A stretch of DNA of 64,000 nucleotides from Raillietiella orientalis (GCA_036172245.1 JAYWIR010000001.1:10540001-10604000), one strand, 5' to 3'. Shown: positions 620 to 50,315, counted from the first letter of the stretch. Numbers and translations are program-made. The notes: generated from the letters alone by a model not told the origin.

Positions 620-1165
620 TTGGTTAACATCCCTTTCCGCTGCAGGGTTCAGGGAATGCCTTCACTTCCCCGCTCCACGTACGACGATGGTCTTCCTCCG
701 TACTTCGAAGGATGCCCAGCTTGTTCTCCCCATATGGAAAAAAGGCCACTGCAGATCCCTCCCGCGTTGCCTGCGAAATCCGACTTCAGGCTTCCGCCAT
801 TCGTTCTTTGGACGCAAATTCACGGGGTGGTAGAGATCGCAATAACGACGTGCTTCTTCCAGAGAGAGGAAAACACTGTGCCCCTTGCAGGGCATGGACG
901 ACATCGGAATCCTGGAGACCTGGAGTTCATAAAGGGAGATCCTGGAATCTGAACAGGATTCCACCTGCGAATGGGAGCGCTCCTACCCCTCCCTCGTGAT
1001 TGATAATGTGGTTTCCTTTGCCCAGTATCCTCTTTCCAGCTAACTCTCTGTCCAGGTCCAAAACGTTCCAGCTCTTTCGAGCAGAATCAGGAAAATAAGG
1101 GATGCTGGTTGTACCTAATGCTTCCCGCTGTCTGACTGCTCCGGATAGCTCTGGGTAGTTCGCTT
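620..1165 (-). mobile_element. Possible LINE reverse-transcriptase relic
   Basis: Minus-strand fragments LERFGPGQRVSW, then a frameshifted QG-SP-like segment (~930-945), then RYCDLY follow the order of the RT motifs (FGFG..W, QGxPLSP, YADD). Heavily degenerate. Confidence 0.35.
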
Positions 1166-1709
1166 CTTTTTTTCATTTTTGGTTCCCCATGTGCTCAAGA
1201 TCTGTTCGCCTAGAGGCTCATGAAGTTCTTTGATGCTGAGCACGACGCCCAAGGATGCATGTAGCTCCTCAGTTTAGGTGGTTACCCGGGAGGGGATCGT
1301 CCTATGAAACCAGGCAGATTCCGGAAAAAGGAGACCGTTCCTCTCATTCCTGGGAGAAAACCTCGAAGGGAACCTCTTCATCATTTGCTCCCTAGAGGTG
1401 GTCACTCCATTATTTCTTCTCCTGAGGGAACCCGCAAAAGAGTCTCTCCTGGTTTCCTCCTCTGAAGAGAACTCCGAAGGGACGCTTGCCAATTTTCACT
1501 GAAACGCACTTCTTGGAGAGGTATGAATCCATCAGCTCCATGGTACGAAATGGAGGGGGTCTCCCCCGAGAGGAGGGAAGGCTCCATCTTCCCCATCGCA
1601 GGGGAACCCCGTAGACTCCTTTGTTCCTGAAAGGACCCCGGGGGGTTAACTTTCATCCCGGCCAGTCAACGGGGGCATCCGGTTTCCGTCTTCCACCAGT
1701 ATCACGCCC
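1165..1709 (-). mobile_element. tRNA-headed SINE-like repeat, 3' body (interrupted by LINE copy A; 5' part at 2699-2790)
   Basis: Shares family blocks (GTTCGCCTAGRGGCT, CCTATGAA.CCAGG, CTCCATGGTACGAAATGGAGGGGGTCTCCCCCGAG) with 15470-16140, 33380-34120 and 63400-64000. Confidence 0.75.
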
Positions 1710-2698
1710 TTCTTGTCTGCACTTGCACGTGTTCTCGTCCTCCTAAAGAGTGCGTGGGCAAGCAGAACTGGGAGAGTGCGGAGACAAGGGACTTGTCTCC
1801 GCACTCTCCCCCTTGAGAGAACATATGGGCAGCAGCCTTGCGGCTACATGGGAGGTTACTGTGGAAATCTCCGGAAGGATCAAAGGACTGTGTGAGTGGA
1901 CGACGGGCCAGCTCACCGATCCTGTGACCCCGAGTGTTCGACCTCGTGGACTCTTGCTGGGTATTCCTGAGGAAGATCTGCAGTGACTTCAAGTTCTTCT
2001 GAATCGACGCATCCTCCCCTTAAAGTGGCAGGAGTTGGAATTGATGCTGCTGCACAGGGGCTTCGCGTGCAACGCCTTCCAGCATTAGTAGACACGGAAG
2101 GAAGGGATGAAACGAAACTGTGCAATGTGCGGGGAACGGGAATCCCTCCTGCACCTCCTGGTGGACTGTGTTGCCCACCAACCCCATTGGAAACGCTTTG
2201 CCGCGACCATTGGAAACCCCGGCAGCAACGCCAGAGACGTTCTTAAGCGCCTCTTCCAGCGCGATGCCTAGGCCGGTCACATCCCTAGCGCTGCCCACGT
2301 GGCGGGATTATGGCTGCATGGAGCAACGCCATAGGAGTCCAGAACTACAGCGACGCCATCTATTCTGCTGTCCTCTTCATGAGGATAACGCCAAAACGGC
2401 CCCACCTGGGAGTTTTGAAACGGGAACTTGCCGGCACCCTTACAAGGATGCAGAGGACGCCCTCTAGCACGCAGTGATCCCCTCCCGAACCTCCCAGTTT
2501 TTTGACTGCATTTTTCGTTTTGTTTTTTTCTTTTTGTTTGTCTCCTCTTCCCCTGTGCTGTCGAGGCGAACCCCGCTGGCCTGCGCGCCAGATCCCGGCA
2601 GGTTCCTTTTCGCATTCATAAGTAACGTGGCAGGATCAAACATCCTGCCACAGATGTGTAGGTTTTCTAAATGAACGCCCTGGCATGACCGGGTGTCA
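1710..2698 (+). mobile_element. 5'-truncated L1/Tx1-like non-LTR retrotransposon, copy A (ORF2 C-terminus + 3' UTR)
   Basis: From 2119 the frame reads CAMCGERESLLHLLVDCVAHQPHW, a CCHC zinc knuckle typical of LINE ORF2 C-termini, preceded by LMLLHRGFACN. It is clearly homologous, inverted, to 31378-32064. Confidence 0.8.
1770..1810. repeat. Perfect 19-bp inverted repeat with 3-nt loop
   Basis: GGGAGAGTGCGGAGACAAG-GGA-CTTGTCTCCGCACTCTCCC. Confidence 0.95.
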
Positions 2699-2790
2699 AC
2701 CACTGCCGCACCCGTATAGGTCAACCAGCGTCATCTTGCGTGGAGAACTCGAAATATACGACGCACCCCCCATTTATCGGAGCCGATCCT
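2699..2790 (-). mobile_element. SINE-like repeat, 5' part continuing after LINE copy A
   Basis: TGCCGCACCCG...AACCAGCGTCATCTTGCG...GAACTCGAAA...CGACGCACCC is the segment that directly follows CCACCAGT in uninterrupted copies (e.g. ~15980-16060). Confidence 0.75.
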
Positions 2791-2989
2791 TTATTTTCAC
2801 AGGGTCACGCTGGGAAGTCGATTGTAAAAAATTAAAAAAAACAACAGTTAATGTATTACTTGGAATATGAAAACGTTTTTCTTTGTGGTTGTCTCACATC
2901 ATCACTAAGAAGGGAAATGCCTTGGAGGTACTGCTTCTCATGAGCAACTCCTCCGATGAGGTCTGCATAGGAGAGCTGAGGGAAGGGTT

Positions 2990-3013
2990 AAAAAAAAAAA
3001 AAAAAAAAAAAAA
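2990..3013. repeat. Poly(A) tract (24 nt)
   Basis: Direct read. Confidence 0.9.
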
Positions 3014-4059
3014 CCAAAAGCTCAGTTTTAAAAAATGTTATGGGGCGAGGAAGGAATCACAGAATTTCTTCCTGTCATCCTCAGCATCCTCTTCAGACTG
3101 GTAGCTTCCTCCTTTTGTTAACAGAGATGAGGCCATCTAGTCGCCTTCCTCATGAAGGAGCAAGAGATTGGGATGACCTCACCGTTCGACTGGCCTCTTT
3201 CGGCGAGGCTTTTTGCCGCCACGATCCCACAAAGACAGCACTTTGATCTTAGCCAAAAGGCAGAGACAGCACAGAGCTGCAAGGGAAGCTGCAGGCGACA
3301 TCAAGTCGCGCGCGAAGAGGCACCGCAAGACCTCTCTGCCATTTCCATCGGGGATGGTAGGGCCTCAGCAAAGCGTTTCCAGAAGAAGGGAACGTTTTTC
3401 GCGTTTTCAGAAGGGCAACACAATCCAACGGCAGGTGCGAGATGGTTTTCCGTTTCTCGCAAATGGGGCTACACTCCCTTTTGTCCAGTCGTGGACTCGT
3501 GCGTTTCATGGGATCGCCCAGTGCAACAACTGTAATGTCGAGTCCTGCTGCTTCAGGGGGAGCGTGGAGCTGTCCACAAGCACTGGGGGTATTTCTGTTT
3601 CTTCAGGAGGAATGTTCAAAAGTTCCATCCAGCAACGAATCCCTTTGGAGAGGGTGGCAAGGTACATGCGTTAGCAAGTTGACACGCCGTCCAGCATCTC
3701 AGCTGCTTCTTTTTTCATGTGGTCTCGCAGGGTACTTGCCATCCTTGAAGGCCATCTCCACGTCCAGTTTGCCGGATTGGGATGAGCGTGGCTACAAGTG
3801 GTGTGTTCGATACCCGAGTGATTTTCCTTGAGCAATCCATGACTTCCTACGACGAGCAGTGAGAGCAGTTCGAGAATCACAAGCATCGCGATGGCTCCTG
3901 GTTCATGCCGTTTCTTCCCGCCCACGCCTGAACCGTTTCCTGCTTCCAAGCACTACAGTTGAAGCGGCAGGGAAACAGCCTCCTCTCCTGAGCAGAGGCA
4001 ACCATCTGCCGGTGCTGGTACCCGCGTCGGAACAACTCTCGGTGGTTATACACGAGGAA

Positions 4060-4145
4060 GGCGCCGAGTCGCTCCTTTACGGGGATTCGAACCCGCAATG
4101 CTTCGTGTCACGCGCGCAGACCCCAGTCACATGGTCTCCAACGCG
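4060..4145 (-). mobile_element. Isolated tRNA-like head of the SINE family
   Basis: The reverse complement of 4083-4093 is GGTTCGAATCC (Pol III B-box), and the upstream sequence matches the head at ~34050-34120. Confidence 0.55.
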
Positions 4146-4929
4146 GGCGAAAGTTGGTTTCAGGAAGACATGCAGAGATAAACACGCTCGCCTTCAAGAG
4201 CTAGAAGACACACAGGGATACTTTCAGATACTTAGTGATTTGCGGAAGAGGCGAGAAAAAAAAAACATTGCAGTTACTGTGCTCTTGCTGATCCATCGGT
4301 TGTTGTTTTCTTCTCGACGCGAGAAGACGTACCAAAACGGGAAAGGGATCTTGAACTCTCGCCTTCTTCAGTTACAGATCCAGGGGCCCTTGGAAAGATC
4401 CCAAGCCCTGCAAATGGGCTCGGCTTACGAGCTTTCGATCGGTTTGTTTGCGCCACTCTGCTTCTTGATTTGAGGTTTCCGGTTTTATCGCCGCATCTTG
4501 AGAGGAGGGTAAATGCGCTCCTTGAGGCGAAGACGGGGTGCCAATACCGGCACATCGCTGAACTGAGGGAGATCTCCGTTGGGTGCCAATCCCCATCTTT
4601 CCAAGATCCTTTTCATCAGCTGGCCGCTGGCCGTCCAAAGACCATCGCCAAGCTGCTGGTCTTTGTTTTAAAAATTTGAGGAAAAACCGCTCTCTGGATT
4701 TCAGCTTTTATCTTTGCAATCTTCCGGCTTTCACTCCTTTTAATCAAAATTCTCCCTGCTCCTCCAGCTCCTGTAAGCATAATTTACTTTACATTCCTGA
4801 GTGGGAGTCAGGACTTATTCTTTGTGATACTTGATGTATTTCCCGGGACCATTAATTGCTATTCGTGCTATTTATTTCCTCCCTTTCATTTGCAAACCAT
4901 CTTCCTAATTAATCCCGAAACCGTTCCAG

Positions 4930-5590
4930 TCGCTATGGAGGCCGCGTGGCTGCGGTCTCCAAGTGTTGTGGTTTCGAATACCCGTAAAGGATCGACGTCA
5001 GCGAGATGGAGGTGAACCGCGCGTTTCGAGCTTCCCTCCGCAAGATGACGCTGGTCGGCCTACCTTCGGGTGCGGCACTGGTGGAAGCTGGAAAAAGACG
5101 GGAGCCTCCGATGAGTGGCTGGGATTGGAAGTCGACCCTCCGGAGTCCTTCCGGGAATTAAGGAGTCCTTCGGGCTTTCCATGCGGTTGCGCAAAGGAAA
5201 CCGTGTCCCCCTCCCTCTTATGGGAGGACCGCTCCATCGCGTTCCGTGAAGCTGGGAGATTGATGCACTCTCCAGAGTGTAAGAAGAGGAGAGCTGCATA
5301 CTTGTTCAGCGAAAATCTTGAAGCCTCCCTCCGGGGTTCTTTCCCAAGCGTGAGAGGAATGGGACTCTTTCCTCTCAGGAGCACTTTCCCGGATTCATAG
5401 GGTGTTTTCCTCCCGGGGTACCTCTTAACTTGAAGAGTCCATACGCACCCTCGCGTGGGGCGGGCAGCATTAAAGGACTTTGTGAGCTTAGGAGGCGAGC
5501 GACAGCCCTTGAGGTATTCAGCGAACCAAAAAAAAAGAAAACTGGAAGGAAAACAGCGAAAACAGGAAAGAACCCAGAAGGTCATCCAAA
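4930..5590 (+). mobile_element. SINE-like repeat, near full-length copy
   Basis: Degenerate B-box (GGTTTCGAATA), CAAGATGACGCTGGTCGGCC...GTGCGGCACTGGTGGAA core and the GCGAACCAAAAAAAAA A-rich 3' region. Confidence 0.75.
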
Positions 5591-6259
5591 GGTCGTTTTA
5601 ACTCACTGTTCCACCTTAGTAACTTGCAGCCGTGGCGCTCCATCAGTGGTCCGCAGGGCATCGGAAAGAAGCGATTCTCCAGATACTACTGATGCCGTCC
5701 ATCAATGGGCATGTCTTCCTCTCCGCGGTTCTTCGATGTCATTTTCTTGTCATTTTCTTCGATGTCATTCACTCATGCACTCTCTGTGCGAAAGAAGAAA
5801 CTGCACAAGTTATTGACCGACTTGTCGCCTCCCTCGGAGCAGAGAATTGGGATGGTGATCTCACCCGTTCGACTGACCCTCTTTTGGTGTGGCTTTTCAC
5901 CTCCATAATCCCATGAAAGCAGCACAACAGAGAGTGGTAAGGCGGGGGAAGAGGGGGGGGAAGGAATCGAAACTCACGAGGCTTGCAGTTGTCCCCCTTC
6001 GTGCATAGCAACAAAATCAGGCAGCTGAAGTAATGGTGTTCCTTCTAGTTGAGAGATGTCTTTGAATCTTTGCACTTTCAAAAGTGACCGTTCCAAAAAA
6101 AAAAGTGGTGCTCCGGATGAGTCCGATCGGTACGAAGATTCATTGCCTGGTAGCGCCGGGACGTTTCTTTCGATATAAATAAACACACAGTGACCTAATC
6201 TAGCAGATAGGGGAGCATATCACTGCAGTGACACAGGGGTCCCTATGGGAACAGGGAAG

Positions 6260-8650
6260 TTTTTCACCTGGCTCTCCAGGGCGTTTATTTAATAAAAAAG
6301 AAACCAGTCAAGAACTCGGTAACCAACCGAAGACAAAAGAACTTCAAGGGGAGAGTCCACCCACACACAGGGATCGTGACGTCTGAAAGTGGGAAACGGA
6401 AGGGAGGGGACAGTGGATTAAAGGCTCCATTAAATGGAGCCCAACTCTTTGATTTGTTCCGTTCCTTCTAGAGGAAAAAACATGGAAAAGGTGGGAGAAG
6501 ACAAAAAATAATTAAATGAATAAATAAGGGGAAAGTGGAGATAGGGCTTACCGATGTCGGCTGTTCCTTCTTTTCAGAACCAGCGCTGGATGCCGGAGAT
6601 CTCTGACTTCACTTCTTCCAGGTGAGTTCACCTAAGATACGTCCTCATAAAGGTTGGATGCCTCCCGGATCACCTCCCTTCTCTGCGGGCGTCGTCTTCT
6701 CGAGCACGTGGTGGGCCGTGACGATGTCGCGGATGCAACACGCCGTTGCCATCACTACACCATCCAAGTCCGAAGCGCGTACGAGAAACTACCTCAGCAG
6801 GTCACGGACGGTGCCGCTCTGGTAACGGACTGCCGAGGTCAGCCTTCGCCACAGTTCTTGGAGATCACCGCAGTTCAAACTCAAGTGCAGGATCGACTCC
6901 GCCGACTCGCCCTGACACGATTCGAGGATGCCGCCTCCCTGGGAAACTTCACTGGAATTCCTGGTGTAGAAACAACGTCACAGGAAACACGGAAGTGTTT
7001 AAACGCGAGGGAGGGACCTCAAATTCTTCGGACCCCTGAAGACTTGGGACCACTGAAGGAGTTTCCTCGGCTGGATACAGGGAGTGGCAGCATCCGCCAA
7101 GGAGTTTCGTCTTCCGAGCAATGGAGCAGGAAAACTCCCACCTCACCGGTAGGCTTCTGGCGTCACTTGCCCTGCAGGCAGAAAACGCTGTGGCAAGGAG
7201 TGTGGCTGCCATGGGTGGACCAATTTGCCTTGTTCTGTATCACCGCTCCTAACAGTTGGGGTAGGAAGTGGTTCAGGGGCAAAGTTCCTCTGGGAGCATT
7301 CCCTAGAATGCAGTCTCTTGCCACCAGGCATTGAAGTTCATTGGGCGGCAGGAGGTTCACGGTTGGGTTTCCAGTAGGAAAGAGGCGAGTTGCCTCAGAA
7401 AGAAGCCAAATCCCCGCATCCTGTACATCAAGGATAGTAGGCCTTCGCTGTCTGGACAGGGAAAGTAGGGTGAGGTAGGAAGAGGGAGAATTCACCGGGT
7501 TTATTGTTCTTGATGTTCTGGGGATGATCGCCTCCACTTATGTGAGGACTCTTGTCACCAGATGCTTCCATCTTCGCAGGTTACGAAGCAGCGTACCCTA
7601 TAAAACTGGAGAAGTCTCTTTGCGTTCTTCTGGAATTCTACAGAGTGCCTACCCACGGCGGGCTCACGCAAAAGCCATGGTTGCTATGCAGCTCCTTGGC
7701 TCTCACATCCAGAAGGGATAGACTGTGCGCCACATGATGCCACCCTTGTTGGAGGTACTGGCATTCCGTAGGAAGGTGGTGCGGAAGCTTTTTTCTTCCT
7801 CCACATCTCCTGCAGGGACAAGGGTAGCCTATTTTCCCCAGAGATATCTAGCTGAGATCATTCCTGGTCGAGGCCCAGTGTGTTATCAGGGCTAAAAGAT
7901 GATGCGCTCTCGAGAGGATGCGCGAGGTTCCCGAAAAATGTGCTAGATTTCCACCGTGCTCTCGGGAAGGCTCGGGTAAGTTCGGCTATCGGAAAGGGTG
8001 CCCGCCGTCTCAACCCTTAGACTTTGGAGAGGTATCTTCCTCTCAGCCGAGCATCAGATCATCTTCCATCGTGGAATTTGGTCTGCGTTGGGCCGTAGGA
8101 AAATGTGGCGGTCAGCTCGTGCAGCTCTTGCATTCCCACAACGTCCATCCTATTTTCCGCCGTCACTACAAAAAGGGCCCACCTGGATGAGACTGGAGTA
8201 GATCCACCAAATCTTCACATCCCATGGAAGAACTCCCTCTTGTGATCATATCAACTCCACCCTGTCGCACCATCTCTCTGGTAACTGCACTCTTTCTCCC
8301 TCTCTTCACTGCTTTTCGTGTTTCATCTTGAATAACACATCCAGTCTTTTAGAGGCAAAAGGAAACTTGGAGCGTATTGTTATCTTCCGGCACCCCGATT
8401 TTGCTCTTTGACCTTGCGATTCGTGAACCCGAACATATGCAAACTGCACAAAGGAAAATGACCTGTCTTTCCTTGCTCCGGAAACCAAAAGAAAGCGCAA
8501 CCTTTGTGTTGATGAGATGTCATGATGACCCTCTCCAGGTCACAGGTCGAACCCTTTACACCACTGGTTTCCACTAGCCAATGTCATTCTTTAGATAAGC
8601 TTCATTCATCGTGAGACCACGGTGCCAGTAGCAGTCCGCGCCGAAAGATC
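6260..8650 (-). mobile_element. Decayed LINE related to copies A/B
   Basis: The minus-strand 3' end TAAATAAACGCCCTGGAGAGCCAGGTG (~6265-6291) resembles the 3' ends of copies A/B. There is a frameshifted zinc-knuckle-like C..HCSEDETPWRML near 7090-7130, and many stops. The 5' boundary is uncertain. Confidence 0.5.
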
Positions 8651-9749
8651 CGCTCACCAGTGACTTGTTAGCATACAGGGATCAGAGTGAAAATTGGGAG
8701 CAGGTGTAAATTCGTTTCAGAATCTCGAGGCTCGATTCTGTCCCCGAAAACTCTGAAAGATGGAAGGGAACAGCTTCTATGTGCGTGGAACCTCAAGAGG
8801 TTCACACTATGTGGACGCAACCTCTCCGAGTCTTTGCATTCGCCGAAGTCTTCCGGACCCAGAAGAGCACCTCCGACACAAATTTGCCTTCTCATGAACC
8901 TGCCAACTTTCTGTTGGGTGAAATTTTTCCGCTCAAGTGGTCGTAGGGGGCGCCTAAGCAGAAAATCCTTTTTGCACACGGCACAGGAGGAAATATCTGT
9001 TCCTCCTCTTCATTTTGACTGTTTTTTTTGCTTTTTTCTTCGTATCATATGGGATGAAAGGCGAGTGTAGGGAAAGATTCAAAGCACGACTACGCTTTCT
9101 CTGTTGCTAGCATCTCTGCGCATTGATTCATCCAGGGGAAAGGAATGGTTTTAAACTGGGGATCGTGAGAAAAGCTTTCAAAAGTTAGGGAAATGAATTA
9201 ACACTAGAAGGCGTTGGTTTCCCTTCGCGACGAAGCACGGCAAACAAAAAAAGCCATGTGCAAGCATCCTGTGATCAAGAAATCGATCAAGAAATGATCC
9301 CCGGCAATTGTGCATCTTTTAGCATCGCAGTTGCGGTGATCGAAGGTTTGCATCGACACCGGAACTTTGCCTGTCAGATAGAAGAGTTCAACGGAGGGAA
9401 AACGAAGAACTCCAGAACTCTGAAGTTCCTCGCTTTCCCTCCGTCGAACGATTGTCCCTCTGGTCGTGCTGCCTTAGGTCATCAGTTCGGAAAATGCGCC
9501 CAAGGATCTTCCTTTAATGGAGGAAGAAATCACAAAAACAACCGGCGTGACTACTATAGCAAGGACTCAATCCCCTTAGCAACAGGATTTATGTTCTTAG
9601 TTGTTCCGGTGGAAAATGTACCGGATCGAAAGAAAAAGACCATTCCTCAGAAGATGTGAGCGTCAATTCGCCGACTCGGCTCCCATCATTCGAATAAAAG
9701 AGAGAGAGAGCCGAGGGGCCGCCCTTCTATTGTCCGCGGACTCCTAGAT

Positions 9750-11600
9750 CTCTCCAGAAAGCAAACAGAATGCTGAGCATCCGCCTCTTGGTCACCCACG
9801 ACGCAGACTTAAGGGGCGCACACCTCGCGAAAGGAAACGTGAAGAGGCGAGGTCGCCCTCCCTCGGTCTTCAAACTTTACTGCTGCTGAAACCTTCGACT
9901 CTTCGATTCAGGAAGCAGCTTCTTCCCCAGTGCCCCTTCAACATCACAGCCCGTTGTACCCTCGAAAGTCGGGCCTTACACAACTCGTCCCCGCACTTTC
10001 ATCAAGACTTGTAATCCTTTTCATTCCACTATCCAGCTTCTCTTGCTCCCCTCCTCTCCAATTTCACCCCCTCGAAATCCTTGCTTTCACTCTAATCCCG
10101 GTTTTTTCCTTCCGCCCTCTCCCCTTGTTTCCTGAGGGAAGTGCGCTCAACTCTTTTCACGGGATAGGAAATGCTTGCAGAGGACTCGAGGAATTCCAGA
10201 GAGCGCCTTCCGTGTCGGCTCAGAATCCCTAAGCGTTCGACACCTGCCCGCTTGCAAAAACTCTGACGAAGAGTCGCGGCCGAAGGTCATGCACCGGAGG
10301 AGCTCGCTAGGCGAGGCTCATCTGAGGAGCAGCGAAAATTCGCAACTTCTCATGGACTTCTCCCTTCCCGCACGATCTGCACGCTTGGCGGCAGTGCATT
10401 CGAGATCGAAGTTCCAGAACCTTCCCCTCGACCAGGAGCGGTACATCTTTGGCAAGAGCAATCAGCGCATGGCCAACACAAGTAAACCAGCACACCCTCT
10501 CACTTCTGGGTTCCAGTTTTCCTTTGGATGAACGCGGGAGCTGCGAAGACGGAAAGCGTCTTTCTGGAGCACTGCAGGGTGCGGACAGCGGCAGCAGAGG
10601 AGAAGAACGATAGGTTTCCCCGCGTCCGAGGAGGATCAGAAGGATGAGCGCTTAGCAGCCTTGCATCCTTTGCTTGCAGCGTTCATTCACGTAAGGGATA
10701 AACGGGTGTTTTTCTCAGACTCATGTCTTCATCCGTCTTTTAGAGGTCATCTTCCTGAATGCTCTTTGGGGAGTTGGGGAACGCAGAAGAAAATCATGCA
10801 ATCAGCACTTCCTTTCGAGCCGGGTACACATCCAGGCAGGAGGATTTCTTATGCAACTTGTGTGAAGACCCTCGTCCGTCCACCAACTTGAAACATAGGA
10901 GGCGGACGCAAGAGGAACTCACACGAAACTCGTCAGACAAGCGGAAACGGAGCTTTCCAGGGCCGCGATGGGTCTCGGAGAGCTTTCTCACGAAGCGAAG
11001 CAAGTCACCCAACAGCACTGTTGCAGACCTCACACTTTTTCACTCTGTCGAAGAGAGAAGATCAAAGAAGGTACTATTGATGGAACTCTCTCGAGTTCCT
11101 GGAAGAACTCACAGGCGTGCAAGGAAATCGGCTGTCTGGCTGAGCGGTGTGACTTGCGAGCTATGTTTGGTTGCCATTGGCTACCGGGACGCTGCCCCGG
11201 CACATGTCTGACAGCTCCTTTTCTCTTGGGTCCGAACCAGCATTAGTTGATTAACTGATTTAACACTGAAAAATGAAGCAAAAGTTCAAAGAAATTTGTT
11301 AGGTTTTCCGGGTTAGCGATCTTCAGCAATTATCTGGTGAGGTTGTTCTCGAGATGAATCTGAATGACTTGTCCCCAGATTGCATCGTTCATGTTACTTA
11401 GGAGGATATCCTGCTCTTTAACGTCTGAGAGACTATCAGAAAATGTCTTCGATGAATTTTTCCTGAAAATAGTGACTCATCGTGTGGCACTCGATGGTGC
11501 TGGCTGATGTTGCCTGCATCTGTTGATTGGTTCTTTGCAAGCAGCATGGGAGACACGGACTTTTGTTCCGGAAGATGCGCACACAAGGAGGCAGAATCTA
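9750..11600 (-). pseudogene. Possible decayed KDZ (Kyakuja-Dileera-Zisupton)-type transposase
   Basis: Minus-strand fragments occur in KDZ motif order: VCWFTCVGHALIALAKDV (~10440-10498), FWNFDLEC, LRIFAAP, DSEPT/EGALWNS..PL...REKS.AH (~10140-10230), with a Cys pair KCEVCNS upstream. Many frameshifts and stops. Confidence 0.4.
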
Positions 11601-14600: not shown

Positions 14601-15469
14601 GAGAGGCCGCTGCTGAAGCCATGCATCCCCGCTCCTCAGCATCCTAACCCGCTGCTGCGCAACCAGACGATTTGCGTTCTTCGAAGGATACCGCTTTTAA
14701 GCACCACTCCTTCCCCTTCCTCCCTGCTTCTCTCTTCCGTTCCCAGAGCCTCCGGCATCGCGCAGGAGAGAGACGAAAGTTCTTCCACGAATCGGGGACG
14801 TCTTTCTCCAGAAACAAACGGACTGCGGGAAGTTCCCAGACTCCATCCCCTGCGGCTAAGGGAGGCTTTAACACGTGCTGGGACGGCTTCTCATCCATTG
14901 TGCGGGAATGCGGGATTTCCTGCAGATGGCACGAAGCCAGAGCGCGCCACCTTGCGACGTGGAGGCACCTCGATGGCGGGGTTGCTGCAACGCGCCTTCG
15001 AGATCCTCCTTCATGAGCTTCATCGTTTGACTCAGGATTAGGACGGAGAGAGGGGGCATCCATCGTTTGGATACCCGATGAGCTTTGGGTGCTTCTTTGC
15101 AGTCAGTCTAGAGGAGAGAGTTCGTTGCCTCTGCCGACCCCACCGCCCGCTTCCCTCCGGACGTCTCTCCTGGGTTGCTCCGCTTCCTGAACCCCTCTAG
15201 GCAGCAGCGCCACACGGAAGCTTTCTCGCGTCCGTCTCCGAACGAGCTGCTACAACTGCAGGATGAAGCGACGCCGTTGCGCCCGCACCCGCTTCTGGAC
15301 CGTGGTGCGTCCTTCCGCGGGGGCGGAAACGCCCGGAGACGGCGTCTCCAGCAGCTGTCTCCTGCACGCCAGTTTGGAGTGTCCTCGCGACAGGGCAATG
15401 TCGGCTGGAAACCTGGATCGTTCGAAAAGAAAACGGGAAATGATTCTCACCGTTTCCCGATGGATGGGT

Positions 15470-16140
15470 TTCCTTTTTTTTTTTTTTTGGTTCGCCAAGT
15501 GCTCAGGGATCGTTCGCCTAGGGGCTTACGAAGAAACTCTTCAAGAACTGGCCACGCTACCCGAGGGTGCGTGTCAATCCTTCAAATTAAGGGATACCCC
15601 GGGAAGAGACCACCCTATGAAACCAGGAAGGACTCCAAAGGAAGGAACCCGCTCCTCTCATGCTTGAGAGGGAACCCTAAGGGAAGAACCTCTTCCTTTT
15701 CTCCGGAGGGCACCCCCAAGGAGACCACTTCTTCTTGGTGCTCCTCTGAAGAAAATTCCGAAGGGATGCTTCCCATTTTCTCTTAAGGGAGCTTTCCGAA
15801 GGGAGCAGAACCCTACTTCACACTCTGAAAAGGTGTCAACCAGTTCCATGGTATGCAATGGTACGAATACGTCTCCACCACCGGAAGGAACTGTCGCTTC
15901 TTGGTTCCTGGAAGGACCCCGAAGAGTCGACTTCCAATCCCGGCCATTCAAGGGGACATCCACCAGTGCTTTAGGTTTTCACCAGTGCCGCACACGAATG
16001 TAGGCCAACCAGAGTCATCTTGCGGGGGGGGAACTCGAAACCTATGACACACCTATTTCTCCGGCGTCCATCCTTCCCCCAGGCAGGATTCAAACTCGAA
16101 GTGCTTGGCACCATGCTCGCAGACAGTGGCCGCACTGCCG
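15470..16140 (-). mobile_element. SINE-like repeat, near full-length copy
   Basis: T-tract + GGTTCGCCAAGTGCTCAGGGATCGTTCGCCTAGGGGCT through CACCAGTGCCGCAC to GGCAGGATTCAAACTCG (B-box, reverse complement). Confidence 0.8.
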
Positions 16141-18450: not shown

Positions 18451-18671
18451 AGTGAAAACTACCTAGTGGACGAAAAGGAGAGCAAGTGCAGAATTCACAG
18501 TCTCCGGGAAACAGTCGATAGTCACAGGCGCCATCAAGACAGGTGCATCCCTGGCTTCGAACTTCACCTTTGCACCACTTCCCAAAGAACAAAAACAAAA
18601 AAGGGGGAGCACGAGACGAAGACTCGTGAAAACTCTTAACGCAAGGACAACCTCTTTCTCGCGACGCAAGC

Positions 18672-18986
18672 ATCGGTACTCTGGCGAGACTAGACGAGCT
18701 CGTAACGAAGTCTCCGACGCAGCGACGGGAACGTTTCCCTTCCCCCTGATGGCGCAACAATCGGTACCCTGGCGAGACTCGATGTGTCCGAAGAAGTCTC
18801 CAACGCAACGACGGAGCGCTTCTCTTTCCTTTGATGACACAACAATCGGTAGCCTGGCGATACTCGGCGTGCTCGAAGAAGTCGCCGACGCAACGACGGA
18901 GCGCTTCTCTTTCCTTTGATGACACAACAATCGGTAGCCTGGCGATACTCGGCGTGCTCGAAGAAGTCGCCGACGCAACAATCGGT
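18672..18986. repeat. 85-bp minisatellite, about 3.6 copies
   Basis: ATCGGTA units start at 18672, 18760, 18845 and 18930 (periods 88, 85, 85). The last unit is cut after 50 bp and followed by another ATCGGT at 18980. Confidence 0.9.
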
Positions 18987-21199: not shown

Positions 21200-21477
21200 C
21201 GCCGTGCTCCTCGCTTTTCCTCCCTCCTCCTCCCCTTCTCTCTCCCTTTCCCTCTCCTCCTCCTTCTCTCCCCATCTCTCCCCTCAGTTCCCGCCGGCAG
21301 CCGAGTCCGGAGGATCCTATTGATTCCCGCTCTACTCTGTTCTCCCGGCACCTACCGCGTCGCACGTAGCGTTCCCGTCTTCCCGACGATGCGTTTCCTC
21401 CCTCGAAGGGAACGGAGGCGGCAGCAGGGAAGATTTTCGGCTCCGAGGAACCCGGCAGATCGCCCCGCGAGGTAAGT
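21200..21477 (+). promoter_or_regulatory. Candidate core promoter and non-coding first exon (Inr TCAGTT 21284-21289; donor GAG|GTAAGT at 21472)
   Basis: Very GC/CpG-rich block (~20400-22100) with a long CT-rich tract, an arthropod initiator consensus TCAGTT and a perfect 5' splice site about 185 nt downstream. Confidence 0.45.
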
Positions 21478-24400: not shown

Positions 24401-27400
24401 TTCACACGTGTTCGCGGATGGAACTTTGCCTGAGGTGAAATTGCATATGCGTCCACAGACATGGTTTTGCTCCGCCTGTTACGCACCTCCGGCTCATCAC
24501 CGTGTCTTCGGCTCATCTTCGCGTCGATGTCTCGCCTCCGGCGCTTCCTTGCAGCTCGAGAGGACCTCACGCGTTCATGGAGACCGGGCCGGCTTCGCCC
24601 TTAGGGATGTTCTTCCTCTGCAGCTAACCTCTTCCGTCGTCCTACCTTGCATTTCTCCAGAGCAATACTCGCTGGAGTATCCTCATCGGCTTCAGCCTGG
24701 TCCCGTTCCTCGTCTTCTTTCGGCGCCTTTGCGTCCGAGTTTCGTCCTTTGGTCTTGGGTGCGAATGGGGTGGGAAGAAACCGTCGAACGTCCATCCCCT
24801 CAGGAACGTGCATCCACTAACCAAAGAACGCCCGTTCCCGGCATAACGAGGAAAGGAAATTTTTCCATTTCCTTGACGGTTTCGCAGCAAGGTGATTCCA
24901 ACGCGTCCCCACGGACACTCTCGTTCCGGATTCTCTTTCCGGTGGTTCGGACTCAGAGTTTGGATCTTCGGCAGCGGAATCTTCAGCAGCGTCCTTTCTG
25001 GCTGTCGGAACCTTCCAGCATCGATCAGCGAAACCTCAGCACGAAGTGCGGTGCCAAATGCCTTGCCACCAGCGCAGGAACCGGCGATCGGGGGATCTCT
25101 TTTTTCCGGGCGAATCGCGCGGAAGAATGGACCTGCTATGTGGCAGCAAAGGAAGCCACACTTGATTGGCACTCGAGTGCGGCAAGCCGCTACCGCTCGC
25201 GGCCTGCTCCCTTTTAGAAAGCTGATCGGTTCCTCCTGCTTTGGGAGGGCTTGGCCCCGCTGTCTGCCCCTATTTCAATCATCCCTCTTTTGCTTAACTG
25301 CTCTAGAAGGAAGCTCTCGATGTTTCTTCTCGGTAATTGTCTGGAGATCGGGCAGGCAGAGACGTCTGCTTCGTTCGACATCCAGATACACCTCCTTCCT
25401 TGCTTTTACTTACTTTCATCCTTTCCTGATACGTCGGAAGAGAAAGAAGCAACCGAGATTAGATGAGAGAAGCGGACACGGAAGCCACCAGCGGCTGCCT
25501 GCTGATCCGTATCTTCTCTCAACAGAACAAGCAGTCTGCACTCATTGCAAGGGGAGAAGATAGCCAAATAGCTCTCTTCTGCTCTTCGTTAGCACGAGTC
25601 GTCTCACGCAGGCGTTCCCAGAAGCGTATCTTTTCAATCCACCCGTGCTCTCTTCTCGCCAGGAATATGGTCGGCTCTTCACGCACGCGCGAGACGCTCG
25701 GGAAGTCGTTTGCGAGCAGTGACGAAAGTTTGAGGGTCAATTCAGAATCTCCTGGGATGCCTTCCGGGGTTGGGAAGGGCCGGCCACCCACTATCGAAAG
25801 TTGACCACGAGTGAGGGTTTCAAATGGTGATGCAATGCAGCCGCGGCGTGGAACCGGAGACGCGAGCAGCCGCCACTCGCAAATCCATTTTCGCATCTCC
25901 ATCTTCCGCTCTTATTGATAGAGCGAAGGTCATCGCAAGCTTCCGTTGATCTCTGGATTAGATCGCTCCCGTCCATCCTATTTGTTGTACAAATGCTGAG
26001 GAGGAAAGATATGAATGCCATTCAGTTGGCTGCACACTTTCTTGGTCTTCTCTTAAGTCCTCGGGAACTTTGGAAACCTCGAGTGCTTCCAGCTAGATCC
26101 ACCTGACTCCTTTCGGTGCTCCTGAATACGCTAGAGAGACCTCCTGCGTTTTGTTTTACTCGTCTTTTCTTCTTCCCTTTGTTCGTGTGTGTGTGTGTAT
26201 GTGTGGTCTAAAAGCTACACGCACACTCAAACCCACATGCACTTTCATTCCTGAGGGCAAAATGCAACCACCGAGAATGGGGATGGAGTTTAGCATCTGA
26301 AAATGCAGGCTTTCTCTGCGAATGGATGTTGTGCCAGACAAAGCGGGCATTCCCGTAACGATCGTCTGACGCCAAAACCATCGGATGTTTCATTTTTCTT
26401 CTTCTTTTTCTTTTTTGTTTTCCTCTCACGGAGCTCCGTATTTTTATGTGCTTGAGGCAGGCAGACGCTCTTCTCCGCATCTCTGCTCTTGTCTTTCGCC
26501 GTTCATTTGCCTCGCAACAGTGGGGCTGCTGGAAGATCTAAGACGGAAAAATGCAAGGAGCTATTTTAAGAAGGGTCGGGGTGGTGGGCGCGGATAGTCC
26601 AAATCCAGGGATCCCTCAGACAAAAAAACAAAAAAAGAAAAGAATATGCCTGTACTGACGCCGGAGGGAAAACGCCTTTCTTCTTCACCAGTCTCCCGAG
26701 AGCAGCGACGGCAGCCTGGCCGGATTCAATCGCTCCACCGGGGGGAAGCGAAAAGGCTGTCCAGGATTTTTCCACCTCGCTTTGCTGGGCAGCCACGGCG
26801 CGAACCTCCCTGAGACCAAGGTCCCCTTTCGAGCAGCTTCCTACTGAGATGTCCAGAACGTTGCGCGCGGGAACGCCGCTGCGGAAACAGGCGGAAAGTC
26901 ACGAGGAAACGTGTGCTCGAAATGTGTGAAGAAACGTTGGTCGATCAAGGTGACCTTCTCGCGCGAGACCTTAGAAAGAGCTGTACAATAAAAAGTTGCT
27001 GTTGGCGTTATGAGTTCGAGTTTTATCGTGCATTTTCTCCGTTTCCATGTGTACAAAAGGCAAGAGGCTCCACGCTGTTTGCGGCGTTGAAATGAAAGAC
27101 GAAATTGAAGTCAACATGATGCCAAAACACACAGGCGGTGACCGTTGGACCCTTAGATTGCAGTCTGCAAACAGCGATTTCAGCGGCACGGCGTATGAAA
27201 TGCGCCCACTTTTGAGTCCCCTTGGTTTTCGGAGCGGTCTGGAATTATGGAAAAGACTGCCGCAGCAACCCTTCGTTTAAAGACGACTTGTTTGTTTTGG
27301 AGCATTGGAAAAGCATCAACTCTTTCTTTTGTCAAACTCAGGAAAGAAAAAGACCGTTTAGCGGATTCATGGTAATTGCAGAGTACCTCTGAGGGATGAT

Positions 27401-28299
27401 GTGTACCGGATGTGTGTCGCACGTGGCACCTGACTTGCGAGATGGTGAAGAACCACAGGGAATAATCGATTGAAAAAGCAGATAATCAAGCCTCAAAAGG
27501 CGTGCATCCTTCCACTGTTTTGGAGCAGTGGTTTTGAGAGATGATCGATATCAGTTCCCATGGAGATGAATGATGGAAAGTTAAAACTTTCCTGCTCTCC
27601 GAAATGAAAGATTTCGCAGGCGAAGCGACCGAGAAACTGCCTTCCTCTATCACGTGATCTATGGGCAAGCGTCTTGGAATTAGTTTTTCCTCCTTGAGCA
27701 AGAGACAGTCCGAAAGAAGAATTGTTTCAACGGGACCGATTCTTCATTCCGTTTAAGAAAAATCACCATCCGTGCTCAGATAGTTCAAGGACACGTGCGT
27801 CGTGAGTGCGACGCGCATCCCACCATCCGATGTTTCCAGCTGCCGATTCCCGGCTACATTCACGGTCAGGTCTCTCAGAAGACAAAATGAGACCTTGCGG
27901 AAGTATGAGTCCCCCTCTTCTTCAAAATGGGGTCCCAACTGATGATAGTCACGACCTTGTTCGCGGCCTAGAATACTGTAGCCTCGCACTGTTGCGAGGG
28001 GAAAGGTCCTTTTGGAAACTTCCAATACGCGACGGGATCTTTCGATCGTTAATCCAGAAATGTTTGAGGCCGGGTCGCAAAAGGCGGGAAAGGGGGGTGC
28101 TTTGAAATTCCGAAGACATGAGCTTCTGAGTTCCGAGGTGCTGAAGAAAAATACTCACGTCTCTACTACTTCAGCTTCTTCGTCTCCACGAGAGTTTCTC
28201 CGGGTTTGCAAAGTAAGCGTTTCTACTTCCGATTGCCCTTTTCTTCCACGATAAGAATCCCGTTTTTTTTTTTGAAAAAAAAAAAAAAAACCTGACCTT

Positions 28300-28900
28300 A
28301 GCCACAAGCACACGTTGGCGGTCATCGGTACGAATCCTGCGCGGGGAAGGGGGCGCATCGTACGTTTCGAGTTCTCCCCGCAAGATGACGCTGGTTGGCC
28401 TGCAGACTTCGCGGGTGCGGCTCTGGTGGAAACCGGATGCCCCCTTTGGCTGCCTGAGATCAGGAGTTGACCTTCTGAGGTCCTTCAAGGTGCGACGGGT
28501 TCCCTTCAGGGTCCCTTAACGGTTGCGAAAATGGAGCCGTACCATCGCGTGCCATGGAGCTGGTTGGTTCCCCCTTTGTGGGGTCGCTTCTCCATAGCAC
28601 GCTGCCCCCTTCGGGAAGCGCCTTTTCTACACTCTGGAGTACCCCTTTTCGGATTCCCTTCGAAGAAGAAATGAGTGCTCCCCCCCCTCCTAAGACAATA
28701 AGAAAGGAGGTTGCCTTCAGGGTTTCCTCGCAAGAGTAAGGGAGGAACGGCCTCCTTTCTCCGGAGCATTCCTGGATTCGTTGGGTGGTACCCCCTATAA
28801 TTCGAAGAGTCACACGCACCCTCTAATGGCGCAGTGTTAAAGCCCCTCACCCTAAAAGACGAACGGCCCTTCAGCACTTTGCGAACCAAAAAGAAAAAAA
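28300..28900 (+). mobile_element. SINE-like repeat copy
   Basis: GGTACGAATCC head, CAAGATGACGCTGGTTGGCC core, ends GCGAACCAAAAAGAAAAAAA. Confidence 0.75.
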
Positions 28901-29379
28901 GTGAGAGCGAGTGAACCTGTGCCTAAAGATCTTCCCCCAGGCTCCACATGCAGTTGACTTCCACGGCAAGCCAAGGAACTTTCCATCACCCGCATCCCCT
29001 TGTGCTGCTAACAGAATATGCGATCCCTGATCGCGGCTAAGTATCCCGCGGTAGTGAATCCCTGCGGCGCCCCCCAAGCAGTGGGCTGCGGCCTTGGTGT
29101 TCGGTTCGTCTGGTGCCGCGGTGGACGCCGCGGGATCCCGAGGTACCGGGCACTTGGATCCTAGCGAAGAAAATCACTCCGGGAAGCCCGTTCCACTCAT
29201 TTCCTACGCGTATACCTTTGGGGCTTCGGGGCTCTACGGCGAAAGCTGCGTTCCCTCGGAGTACCTGCATTTCTTCTTCTCCTTGGAATTTCGCGCGCCT
29301 TCCGGACTCGCAGCGTTCCGCTCGAGGACAGTCTCGAAGGAAAGTCTCTCTCGATGCGGCAGCTTCCGAAGCGAGCCCT

Positions 29380-30110
29380 CGGAGGCCACGTCTTCACGGG
29401 CCTCCGCGCTGGCGCCACATCACCAAGCGTCGCAGGTTCGCATGCTCGGAAAGAATCGATGCCGAGAGATGGGGGGTGCGTCGCGGGTTCGAGTTCCTCC
29501 CGCAAGATGCCGCTGGTTGGACTCTGTTCATTCGGGTGCGGCGGCACTGGTAGCAGTTTAAACCGGATTTCCCCGATGAGTGGCCGGGACAATCGGAGTT
29601 GACCCTTCGGGGTCTTCCAGGAATCAAGGAGTGAGAATTCCCCTCCGGTTGTGCAAAGGAGCGAACCCCCCATTCCAGGGGGACCCTCTGCGTCGTACTG
29701 ATGGAGAAAGTGTGTCGCCACCTCTCCAGAGAGTGCAGAGAAGTGCGCCACTCCCTTGCGGGAGCATTCGTCTGAGAAATTTCGGAAGAGTCCCTTCTGG
29801 GCTCCCTTCAGAGGAGCAAACAGAAGTTGATCCCTCCGGGGGTCCCTCCGGAGAGAATAAGCAGGCAGATTCCCTTCAGGTTTCCCGTCAGGGTGGAAGT
29901 GTTCCCTTTGGGGATCTCCCCCCAGGCGTGAGAGGAAGGGGCTCCGAGACCTTCCTGGATTCATAGGGTGGTCCCCATCCCGGGTTGCCCCCTATTTTGA
30001 AGAATTGCACGCACCCTCGGATGGCGTGGAACAGTGTCAAAGAGCTGCATAGGCTGCGCCAGGGACGCAACGGCCCTTGAGGCACTCAGCGAACCCCAAA
30101 AGAAGGGAAA
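29380..30110 (+). mobile_element. SINE-like repeat copy
   Basis: Same head, core and GGATTCATAGGGTGGTC blocks; ends CAGCGAACCCCAAAAG. Confidence 0.75.
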
Positions 30111-30899
30111 CCCGAGGTGAGGATATACCAGCCATCTTCGCCCGCTGTCATTCAGCTGGACATGCTCTGGAGATGGGGGCGTGGGTTTTCCCCTCTTGCG
30201 AGTATTGATGGGCCAGCTGCGGTCCGAGCCGCTTCTTTTTCGGAGTGCCATCTCGCTTTCCGGGGAGCGGGGCAACCCGGCATTCCCGGAAGCAACGCCT
30301 GGAAAAAAAATGGTTCGGATCTTCAGTGACGCAATGGAGCTTGGAATGGCATCATTCTCGACTCAGCGTGCCCTTCAGTGATGGGAGACGCAGGGGTGAC
30401 GCCTCAGTGCCGCCCCATTCTTCAAAACATGAGGGTCTTCGCTGGCGCATCCGTCAAAGTCGAAACCTGGAGACTCGCCGATCGAAGCGACCCTCCGCGG
30501 AGTGGCGCGGCGCGCGAAAACGCCCTGCCTGAGTGGTCCGCCGGCAGCACTCCGTCGCTCCCGAACGAAAGGGGGAAAGCGGAAGGACAAATAGCAGATT
30601 GTGGTAGGCGGTCAACGATCTCGCGAAGAAGGAGAAGTGCAGGGAAGAAAAGTAAGAAGGGAAGAAGGGCAACAGCAGCAACAACAGCAGGAAAGAGAGG
30701 TTGGGATTTCGCGGTGTTCGCTGGATGCGTAAAAGCTGGCGGGTGCCCCGGCGGCGACGAAGAACCTTTTTCGAGAGGTTTAGGAACCGGGAAGGCGAAC
30801 GCGAGCAGTGGGTGTGGCCAAGCATTGCAGGAGTCGTGCCACACTGCTGCTCGGCTTCGTCTCTCCCGGTATTTGGATGCAACTGCGACGGCAGATGGG

Positions 30900-31290
30900 A
30901 GATCGGCGGACCCACTGCGAGGCTTCGTTCTTCGAGCGTGGCACCGAACATCGTAGAACCGAATCCCGCCCAGGGAAGGATCGACGCCAGAGAAATGGGT
31001 GCGTCGTAGGTTCGTCAGTTCCCTTCCACAAGATGATGCTGGTTGGCCTACATTCGTGTGCAGCACTGGTGGAAGTCCAAAGCACTGGTGGATACCTCCT
31101 TGAGTGGCCGGGATTGGAAGTCGGCTCTTCGAATTCCTTCCAGGAACAAAGAAGCGACAGTTGCCTCCGGTGGTAGAGACGGAGCCGTACCATCGCGTAC
31201 CATGGAGCCGGTTGATGTCTCCCTTGAAGGGTTGCCTTTCCAGAGTGTCAGAAGCGTCCTTCAGAGAAACCGGGAAGCGTCCCTTCTGGG
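30900..31290 (+). mobile_element. SINE-like repeat, 5' half
   Basis: GAATCCCGCCCAGGGAAGGATCGACGCCAGAGAAATGGGTGCGTCG head and core, with an uninterrupted target site (GTGCAGCACTGGTGG). Confidence 0.7.
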
Positions 31291-31304
31291 GGGAGGAGAG
31301 AACG

Positions 31305-32625
31305 AGGAGCGGTTCGTTGGGTTTCGAGTTCCCCTTGCGAGATAACGCTGGTTGGCCTATTTGGATGCGGCATTGGTTGTCACCCGGTCACGCTGGGGAG
31401 TTTATTTATAGAATAAACGTGCACGTCAGTGGCAGGACGTTTGATCTTGCCACGTTACTTATGAATATGAAAAGGAACCTGCCGGGATCTGGCGCGCAGG
31501 TCAGCGGGGTTTGCCTCGACAGCACAGGGAAAGAGGGACAAACAAACAGAAAAAAACAAAACGAAAAATGCAGTCAAAAAACTGGGAGGGTTCGGGAGGG
31601 GATCACTGCGTGCTAGAGGGCGTCCTCTGCATCCTTGTAAGGGTGCCGACAAGTCCCCGTTTCAAAACTCCCAGGTGGGGCCGTTTTGGCGTTGTCCTCA
31701 TGAAGAGGACAGCAAAATAGATGGCGTCCCTGTCGTTCTGAAATCCTCTGGAGTTGCTCCATGCAGTCACGGTCCCGCCGCGTGGGCAGCGCAGTGCTGC
31801 TGGGGATGCGGCCGGCGTGAGGGCGTCGTGCAGGAACAGGCGCTTCAAAACGTCTCTGGCGTTGCCGCCGGCAGTCGCAAGCGTCGCGGCAAAGAGTCCC
31901 CAAAGGGGATGAAGGGCAACACAGTCCATTAGGAGGTGCACGAGGGGTTCTCGTTCCTCGCGCACATTGCAAAGTTTAGGTTTATCCCTCCCTTCCATGT
32001 CTACTAATTCTGGGCGCCGTTGCACGGGAAGCCCCAGTGCAGCAGCATCAACGCCAACGCCAACGATGCGGCACTGGTGGAAGCAACCGGAAACCTACTG
32101 CTCCCGTTGACTGGCCGGTATTGGAAGCCGATCATTCGGATCTTTCTAGGAATCAGGTTTTTCTTTTCCGGTTGTGAAAATGGAGATCCCCCGTTTTCCT
32201 CGGGATGCGATCCTCCATCGAGTAGCATGGAACTGGTGGATTGATACTTCTCCAGAGTGTCAGCGCCCATCAGAGAAACTGAGAAGCGTCCCTTCGTTCT
32301 CTTCTGAGAAGAAAACGAGTAGTTCCCTTGCGGGTTCCCTTCTGAGAAAAACCGAAAAGTAATCCCCCTCCCCCTCCGGAGGGACTCCCTGCCGAGAGAA
32401 CTAAGGAAGAGGTTCCCTTCGGGGTTCCCTCTTAATCGTGAGAGAGAAGCGGACTCCTCACTCCGGAGTCTTCCTGAATTCACAAGGTGGTCCCTGCGGA
32501 GTTGTCCTCTCACCTGAAGAGTGACACGCATCCCCAAGTGGCGTGGACGGTATCAAAGAGCTTTGTGAATCCATCCTAAGGAGGCGAACGGTTCTTCAGC
32601 ACTCCTAGAGAACCAAAAAAAGATA
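31305..32625 (+). mobile_element. SINE-like repeat interrupted by LINE copy B
   Basis: The 5' core at 31320-31377 resumes at 32065 (GATGCGGCACTGGTGGAAG) and runs to GAGAACCAAAAAAAG at ~32620. Confidence 0.75.
31378..32064 (-). mobile_element. 5'-truncated L1/Tx1-like non-LTR retrotransposon, copy B, flanked by a TSD
   Basis: Reverse-complement homolog of ~2035-2698. ORF 31603..32025 contains EREPLVHLLMDCVALHPLW. It is flanked by the direct repeat GATGCGGCAYTGGT at 31364-31377 and 32065-32078. Confidence 0.82.
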
Positions 32626-49859: not shown

Positions 49860-50315
49860 AACTTCCTCATGCTCTCCGGAAGGAACTTGGAAAATATCCG
49901 TCCCTGGAATTTCTTCGGGAGGTATCCGTAAGGATAACCGCTTCTTGCTTATTCCTCTGAAGAGAACAGTGGAGGGACGCTCATCGAAGAAAACAGCGCG
50001 CTTCTGACTCTCTGGAAAGGCAACACTCCAACGGGGGTATCAACGAGCTTCATTGTACGGGTCCATCTTCTCTTCAAAGGATTCCTTGGTTCCTGGAAGG
50101 ACTCTGGAAGGTCAACTTCCAGTCTCGGCCACGCAACGGGAGTATCCAATTTCCGGCTTGCATGAGTACCGTACCTGAATATAGGACAGCCAGTGTCATC
50201 TTTCAAGGGAGGCTTTAAACCCCACGACACAACCCATTTCTCTGGCATCGATCCTTTCCTAGGTGGAATTTGAACCCTCAGCGTTCGCCATTACGCGCGG
50301 AGATAGCAGCCACCA
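49860..50315 (-). mobile_element. Diverged SINE-like repeat copy (neuroligin intron)
   Basis: TTCCTGGAAGGACTC..GGTCAACTTCC and CCCATTTCTCTGGCATCGATCC family blocks. Confidence 0.65.

Follow-up and report, generated by a model that had tools for sequence, protein, structure and literature searches.

Does a mobile element of this genome use one fixed position inside another mobile element as its landing place? The question is raised by a 64,000-nt stretch of the Raillietiella orientalis genome (GCA_036172245.1, JAYWIR010000001.1:10540001-10604000; "the window"), which carries two related 3' fragments of a long interspersed nuclear element (LINE), here called LINE A and LINE B. Each interrupts a different copy of one short interspersed nuclear element (SINE), and both do so at the same SINE nucleotide. 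An initial annotation had read the pair as independent insertions by a site-specific LINE with a target inside a tRNA-headed SINE. We analyzed both fragments, their host SINEs, the uninterrupted SINE copies and further relatives of the LINE within the window.

LINE A and LINE B in their host SINEs

LINE A is a 989-bp, 5'-truncated fragment on the plus strand (1710-2698), delimited by reading of the sequence, self-BLAST and alignment. It consists of a decayed open reading frame (ORF) tail with a Cys/His knuckle and a 3' untranslated region (UTR) of ~220 nt, which contains a 10-bp hairpin (about 2627-2651) and ends without poly(A). Its host SINE lies on the minus strand in three pieces: a 3' part from the target site to the A-tail (1165-1709, aligned with the other SINE copies), a middle part (2699-2793) and a head with the B-box-like sequence GGGTTCGAATCCCC (4068-4150), which is split from the body by a further insert, LINE C. 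A 15-bp target duplication flanks LINE A, ACCAGTATCACGCCC in the 3' part of the SINE (1695-1709, the 5' side of the LINE) and ACCACTGCCGCACCC in the middle part (2699-2713, the 3' side). The two copies match at 10/15 positions, and of the five mismatches four are transitions located in the 5' copy. We considered whether the 3' flank had been read through or transduced, which would explain this poor match, and dropped the idea, since near the LINE end the host of A resembles SINE copy c4 more than it resembles the host of B (count by eye). The additional 5' length of LINE A likewise belongs to the LINE: when translated from about 1792, it aligns with the translation of LINE C (score 70; 200 shuffles gave at most 50). 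In the 5' part of LINE A, positions 1770-1810 form a near-perfect palindrome of 41 nt (92.7%).

LINE B is a 687-bp, 5'-truncated 3' fragment on the minus strand (31378-32064) whose ORF tail has 153 open codons (31606-32064). The host SINE, on the plus strand, comprises a 5' part that is itself 5'-truncated (31311-31377) and the remainder down to the A-tail (32065-32625). The 14-bp duplication, GATGCGGCATTGGT (31364-31377) and GATGCGGCACTGGT (32065-32078), matches at 13/14 positions, so that the 14 nt flanking LINE B read GATGCGGCA(T/C)TGGT in the SINE sense. Upstream, two SINEs are nested within 30961-31377, where the partial copy c6 (30961-31310) is directly followed by the 5'-truncated host of LINE B; a 3' part of c6 could not be found further downstream.

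The coordinates and strings initially annotated for both LINEs, their duplications and the site agree with the sequence as we read it. The homology of the fragments is also borne out: in a global alignment of the LINE parts, A and B are 87.9% identical over 667 ungapped columns, at a Jukes-Cantor distance of 0.13, and self-BLAST joins 2031-2754 (+) to 32061-31322 (-) with 85.3% identity over 741 columns. As annotated, the two differ in 5' truncation (989 vs 687 bp), lie antisense to their SINEs and meet them at an identical nucleotide. Mismatches between A and B are distributed unevenly, with 59/335 in the ORF tail, 9/248 in the ORF end plus most of the 3' UTR and 13/84 in the terminal segment (Fisher p 8e-8), leaving the central ~250 nt 96% identical. 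A gene-conversion tract, or constraint acting in separate source lineages, could explain this pattern. No evidence for selection between the source lineages of A and B was obtained (pN/pS 0.75, Fisher p 0.27).

The interrupted repeat is ~650 bp long and ends in ...GCGAACC(A)n. Ten copies or part copies were aligned from the window, of which they make up 8.8% (~9% of the pre-insertion sequence), and pairwise identities range from 56 to 76%. In being short, dispersed and multicopy, with an A-rich 3' tail, the repeat resembles tRNA-derived SINEs. Its description as tRNA-headed stands in part only. The head does contain a T-arm/B-box-like sequence, GCGGGTTCGAATCCCGC (copy c7, 34053-34070), but the Rfam tRNA model scores it at 14.6 bits (E 3) against a gathering score of 29, and ARAGORN reports 0 tRNAs in the window at default settings and inconsistent calls at a relaxed threshold. 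Judged by its sequence, the head thus appears to hold no recognisable tRNA.

In the SINE sense, the target site reads GG(G/A)TGCGGCACTGGT|GGAAG. When the window was searched for the 19-nt site GGTGCGGCACTGGTGGAAG with up to three mismatches, six occurrences were found, each within a SINE, and 0 in 100 shuffles. Nine SINE copies retain the site region in the window, and two of these are filled; copy c9 is truncated by the window end ahead of the target site and falls outside this count. The remaining seven run through the site without interruption, as the initial annotation had proposed for empty copies: E2 (4940-5550; site at 5069-5087, plus strand), E1 (15976-15994, minus), c4 (28414-28432, plus), c5 (29535-29556, plus), the partial copy c6 (31057-31075, plus), c7 (33946-33964, minus) and c8 (50155-50175, minus). 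A spacer just past the duplication is 2 nt shorter in both filled sites than in 4/7 empty copies. Beyond the A-run, a stretch of ~30-40 nt beginning CTGGAAGGAAAACAG... is common to E2 (5542-5580), c7 (33393-33431) and probably c9 (near 63440), with 87.5% identity between E2 and c7 over 40 nt; it represents either a longer SINE variant with an internal A-run or a preferred context of SINE insertion.

Independence of the two insertions

Two fragments at one site may stem from two insertions or from one. In the latter case, a composite SINE that already carried the LINE would have been copied, whether through segmental duplication, by gene conversion or as a retrotransposed unit, and later deletions would have changed the lengths of the fragments. 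The common site and orientation of A and B would follow directly from such copying, the shorter spacer shared by both filled sites would be inherited, and the 96% identity of the central 250 nt could be due to gene conversion between the LINEs. The host SINEs tell otherwise. Over 618 columns their identity is 64%, a mid-range value among all SINE pairs, compared with 88% for the LINEs inside them, and the two hosts resemble each other no more than they resemble other copies. The nearest SINE to the host of A is c9 (72%), and the nearest to the host of B is c9 (68%, pairwise matrix) or E1 (71%, tree alignment). In a maximum-likelihood tree of nine copies (c8 was omitted for its shortness), the path between the hosts measures 0.52 substitutions per site, their terminal branches are 0.22-0.25, and the hosts are sisters in 0/200 bootstrap trees. 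The host SINEs are thus shown to be much older than the LINE inserts.

The junctions point the same way. Each LINE has its own duplication, and each 5' junction, at a different point of the element, sits directly against it; a deletion that shortened one copy of a composite would have needed to stop exactly at the duplication. In the ~40 nt beside the LINE 3' end, the host of A differs from c4 at 2/37 positions and from the host of B at 6/37 (by eye). Self-comparison of the window detected no similarity between the two loci outside the SINE flanks, and segmental duplication is therefore excluded. Since the hosts have diverged and are never sisters, the 5' junctions differ, each insert has its own duplication and the flanks are unlike, we reject later copying of a composite, which is hardly credible on these data. 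The initial annotation had itself named a single composite insertion as the outcome that would overturn its view; within the window the hosts are not monophyletic and the 5' junctions differ. Chance coincidence is rejected as well, because a random model puts the probability of two insertions that share both SINE nucleotide and orientation at ~7e-6. We conclude that A and B go back to independent insertion events, in which one LINE subfamily twice entered a SINE at the same internal position, a conclusion that is well supported and upholds the initial one.

Nature of the element and its relatives

The initial annotation recognised A and B and overlooked four related copies, which we designate C, D, E and F. 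The first of these, LINE C (~1.27 kb, 1271 bp; about 2794-4067, minus strand), has diverged from A and B and was delimited by local alignment, nhmmer and reading of the junctions. It is inserted in sense orientation in the SINE that also hosts LINE A, between the tRNA-like head and the body. The head (4150-4068, minus) ends ...CCCCGTAAAGGAGCGAC, and the body resumes at 2793 with TAAAGGATCGGC. The 12-bp duplication, TAAAGGAGCGAC (4079-4068) and TAAAGGATCGGC (2793-2782, in the middle part of the host), matches at 10/12 positions and has the consensus TAAAGGA(G/T)CG(A/G)C. The knuckle of LINE C is intact (CSPICEKRKTISHLPLDC, CX3CX7HX4C). Local alignments of C with A and B score 105-205, compared with a shuffle maximum of 36, and nhmmer gives E 5e-41 to 5e-33; C is only distantly related to A and B. 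A run of ~24 A (T on the strand of LINE C) at 2990-3014 lies in a T-rich 3' UTR region common to A, B and C and looks like an expanded homopolymer.

LINE D is a relative of about 1030 bp (6262-7290, minus strand; nhmmer E 7e-8). Directly after its 3' end comes fragment F, a short and marginal 3' end (about 6146-6189, minus; profile E 0.31), in an arrangement that looks like a LINE-into-LINE or tandem insertion. Fragment E (5816-5921, minus; nhmmer E 6e-10 and 5e-5) is a piece of C-type ORF tail, ~105 nt long and 75% identical to 3137-3241. The 3' flanks of D and F are not SINE sequence, there being no SINE match in 5560-7400, and fragment E likewise abuts none. A split of fragment E by SINE copy E2 was considered and dropped, as no LINE 3' end was found beyond E2.

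Copies A, B, C, D and F end in a common terminal motif, AAATAAAC.CCC.GG....CC.GGTGA(C)A, followed by 0-4 A and no poly(A). From this shared 3' end, 5' truncations are nested at 687 (B), 989 (A), about 1030 (D) and 1271 bp (C). A common 3' end, variable 5' truncation and duplications of 12-15 bp are the features expected of a LINE.

Protein comparisons gave weak signals. The Pfam family zf-RVT, which represents the C-terminal Cys/His knuckle of LINE ORF2, matches the ORF tail at 15.3 and 16.7 bits (E 0.033 and 0.012, the 16.7 bits being for LINE A), below its cut-off of 27.5, and the LINE C fragment alone has no Pfam match. Among the nearest Atlas clusters to the ORF tail, 21/30 are zf-RVT sets, at 0.92, which we treat as a lead only. 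A phmmer search of 1.84 billion representatives with the ORF tail of B returned two matches (P0002 and P0003). The first is the sole true relative, an 87-aa fragment with 54% identity (E 5.6e-15) encoded on a 2.9-kb contig; the second was discarded as unrelated, being a repetitive 760-aa protein with zinc-ribbon-like noise only. A word-indexed search of longer proteins with the LINE ORF tail found none at E <= 0.001, and an ORF-tail profile run against PDB chains hit no LINE protein, only chance matches at E >= 0.47. No reverse transcriptase (RT) or apurinic/apyrimidinic endonuclease (APE) domain of the LINE family was detected with Pfam in three frames of 2797-4899 (minus) and 6900-10199 (minus), or in the nine longest ORFs of the window; the one Pfam family identified in these sequences was COesterase, in a single exon. 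Because the copies are 5'-truncated fragments of 0.7-1.3 kb, the missing RT domain is expected, and we do not count it against the assignment to LINEs.

The inserts might instead be pieces of another repeat class, their duplications having arisen by a different insertion mechanism. The lack of RT and APE domains, the zf-RVT scores under cut-off, the return of two phmmer matches only, neither with a LINE-related Pfam family, and the absence of matches to solved LINE proteins would all suit this idea. Yet a shared 3' end, nested 5' truncations and duplications of 12-15 bp are what characterises target-primed reverse transcription; a CX3CX7HX4C knuckle occurs as well, and the zf-RVT signals from Pfam and Atlas agree. 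We hence consider a non-LINE origin very unlikely and accept the inserts as 3' fragments of a retrotransposon that lacks long terminal repeats (LTRs), a non-LTR retrotransposon. As to its clade, an R1-type element is as possible as the "L1/Tx1-like" one originally named.

When the 3' UTRs were folded, that of A was more stable than shuffled sequences (z -2.6), whereas those of B (-0.5), C (+1.8) and D (+0.8) were not better; a conserved 3' RNA structure is therefore not supported. No Rfam family reached its gathering score in the window. Two exact-pattern scans with conserved LINE and SINE blocks yielded 0 and then 1 match in metagenome contigs, the latter a chance match in a bacterial contig (L001), 0 and 0 in genome contigs, and 0 and 0 in viral contigs. 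The sole gene in the window is represented by a neuroligin-like carboxylesterase exon (about 46565-47005, plus strand). This exon has a start codon, begins like a signal peptide and corresponds to the N terminus of the carboxylesterase family (Pfam COesterase, E 4e-27); the Atlas clusters nearest to it are neuroligin-like, most of them from arthropods.

A probable preference for the SINE site and its parallels

How would one subfamily come to insert twice at one nucleotide? The junctions are consistent with two separate events of target-primed reverse transcription, in which a single poly(A)-less subfamily would have entered, in antisense, one and the same 14-15-bp site of a SINE that is older, abundant and A-tailed. 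In the mechanism that we infer from them, the endonuclease of the element would nick the SINE-sense strand at 5'-GCGGCACTGGT^GGAAG-3' (after ...CACTGGT), and the freed 3' end would prime cDNA synthesis, starting precisely at the LINE RNA's 3' terminus (...GACCGGGTG(A/T)CA). The other strand would be cut 14-15 bp away, at 5'-GCCGCA(C/T)C^-3', and a second cut at that distance would account for the duplication. Reverse transcription would then have halted early, at differing points, to leave 989 and 687 bp.

We favor the view that the A/B subfamily strongly prefers this SINE-internal site and is probably truly sequence-specific for it, and we put the probability of this view at roughly 60%. The endonuclease of the subfamily would then recognise the site, most genomic copies of the subfamily would lie there, and the SINE may act as the "safe harbour" that the initial annotation saw in it. 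Several results weigh against this preference. The case consists of 2/2 copies of the A/B subfamily, all within one window; two cases suggest a LINE aiming at a SINE and cannot prove it. LINE C uses another SINE site in the opposite orientation, and D and F do not abut a SINE. With 5/15 mismatches, the duplication of A has diverged more than the best-conserved LINE stretch would lead one to expect, should the 3.6% divergence of that stretch be a guide to age; pooled over A and B, the duplication mismatches (6/29) fit only the older estimate of LINE age. An approximately unbiased test with the hosts forced into one clade gave p 0.067, which is no formal rejection and not decisive alone. No RT or endonuclease domain of the family is present in the window, and all protein-family matches are sub-threshold. 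Finally, a nick preference of 5-6 bp, available once per SINE, could, by our own estimate, give two same-site hits at perhaps a few per cent.

This last point leads to the main rival, in which the element has only a weak nick-site preference (e.g. ..TGGT^GG..) that occurs once per copy of an abundant SINE, and most of its genomic copies lie elsewhere. The share of the window occupied by SINEs, the other 3' flanks of C, D and F and the number of subfamily copies, two, are all in line with it. Against it, A and B share not only the nucleotide and orientation but also a nearly equal position of the second cut (14 vs 15 bp). The restriction of the 19-nt site to SINEs within the window also counts against it, though this search is uninformative on a shorter motif. 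We regard a weak preference as unlikely, if less so than any other alternative. Since C occupies another SINE site and D and F lie outside SINEs, specificity, if real, is a trait of the A/B subfamily rather than of the family as a whole. In the wider family, 3/5 observed 3' ends (A, B, C, D and F) abut a SINE.

LINE C invites a further reading, in which position rather than sequence guides integration: the SINE's Pol III-type head would attract the LINE family, through the B-box-like motif, bound factors or chromatin, and insertion would follow at set distances from it. Dictyostelium TRE elements integrate at set distances from tRNA genes. As with TRE, LINEs are found here near a Pol III-type sequence: all three LINEs with both junctions defined (A, B and C) are in SINEs, for which a random model gives P ~8e-4, and all are within ~100 nt downstream of the B-box-like motif (C at ~13 nt, A and B at ~95 nt); C and A even share a SINE copy. 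Unlike TRE insertions, A and B share an exact nucleotide, which a distance rule alone would rarely give, and their hosts are decayed SINE copies, not tRNA genes. The age of these hosts (terminal branches 0.22-0.25) makes active Pol III complexes doubtful, the head appears to be no recognisable tRNA, and D and F are not beside a SINE. Guidance by position is accordingly rated as quite improbable, and a preference for the site sequence remains our choice for the A/B subfamily.

Such a preference has well-described parallels. As described by Kojima (2015, PMC4494074), Tx1L of Xenopus laevis inserts into the piggyBac-type DNA transposon Tx1D, crocodilian Tx1-Mar families insert into Mariner-N4_AMi, and other LINEs target LTR elements. 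Insertions of SINEU, a group of SINEs whose mobilisation is ascribed to Tx1-Mar, frequently lie opposite in orientation to their host Mariner, and SINEU-3, which shares the Mariner target, has a 16-bp duplication, AGGTTCCCATCAGCAT (PMC4494074). Like Tx1L and Tx1-Mar, A and B occupy a fixed site within another multicopy transposon, with defined duplications, and like SINEU they are opposite in orientation to the host element; their target differs in being a SINE, not a DNA or LTR transposon. The same text calls a LINE target-specific when one kind of sequence is found in >20% of its flanks (Kojima 2015, PMC4494074), a measure over many flanks, whereas the evidence for A and B comes from two copies.

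R1 elements offer a second comparison. According to Maita et al. (2007, PMC1919474), R1Bm is an APE-type element with a zinc-finger-like C terminus of ORF2, makes sequence-specific nicks on both strands and has a target region of 14 bp. In the arthropod R1 clade, most elements are target-specific, the target of R1 being the 28S rRNA gene (PMC1919474). A and B would resemble R1Bm in fixed cuts on both strands, a duplication of 14-15 bp and priming at the exact RNA 3' end, and their host, too, looks arthropod-like on the Atlas lead. Their predicted nick sites, CTGGT^GGAAG and GCA(C/T)C^, differ from those of R1Bm (ACA^GTG and ACT^ATC). Specificity as a property of a subfamily, if real here, would be shared with both the Tx1 and R1 clades. 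More generally, transposons are listed among the known LINE targets (2016, PMC5035012), and A and B would share with target-specific non-LTR retrotransposons the strategy of insertion into repeated, dispensable sequence. A LINE that aims at another transposon is thus already established, and the present case would be an extension, not a new principle.

It is further conceivable, though rather doubtful, that this SINE family is the dedicated landing pad of a LINE lineage in an arthropod-like animal, with sister subfamilies each having a site of their own. If so, A and B would mark an antisense site at about position 205 and C a sense site just past the B-box-like motif, and the family would exhibit a target-site radiation within one host element and, going by the literature searched, be the first LINE known to have a SINE as its specific target.

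No LINE with a SINE as its specific target was found in the literature searched, which comprised partial texts and did not cover Repbase Reports. If confirmed, the preference of the A/B subfamily would add SINEs to the repeats exploited by target-specific LINEs. It would also point to a natural endonuclease with a recognition region of ~15-20 bp in high-copy, dispensable sequence, and would bear on the evolution of target specificity in APE-type LINEs and on retrotransposon-based targeted integration.

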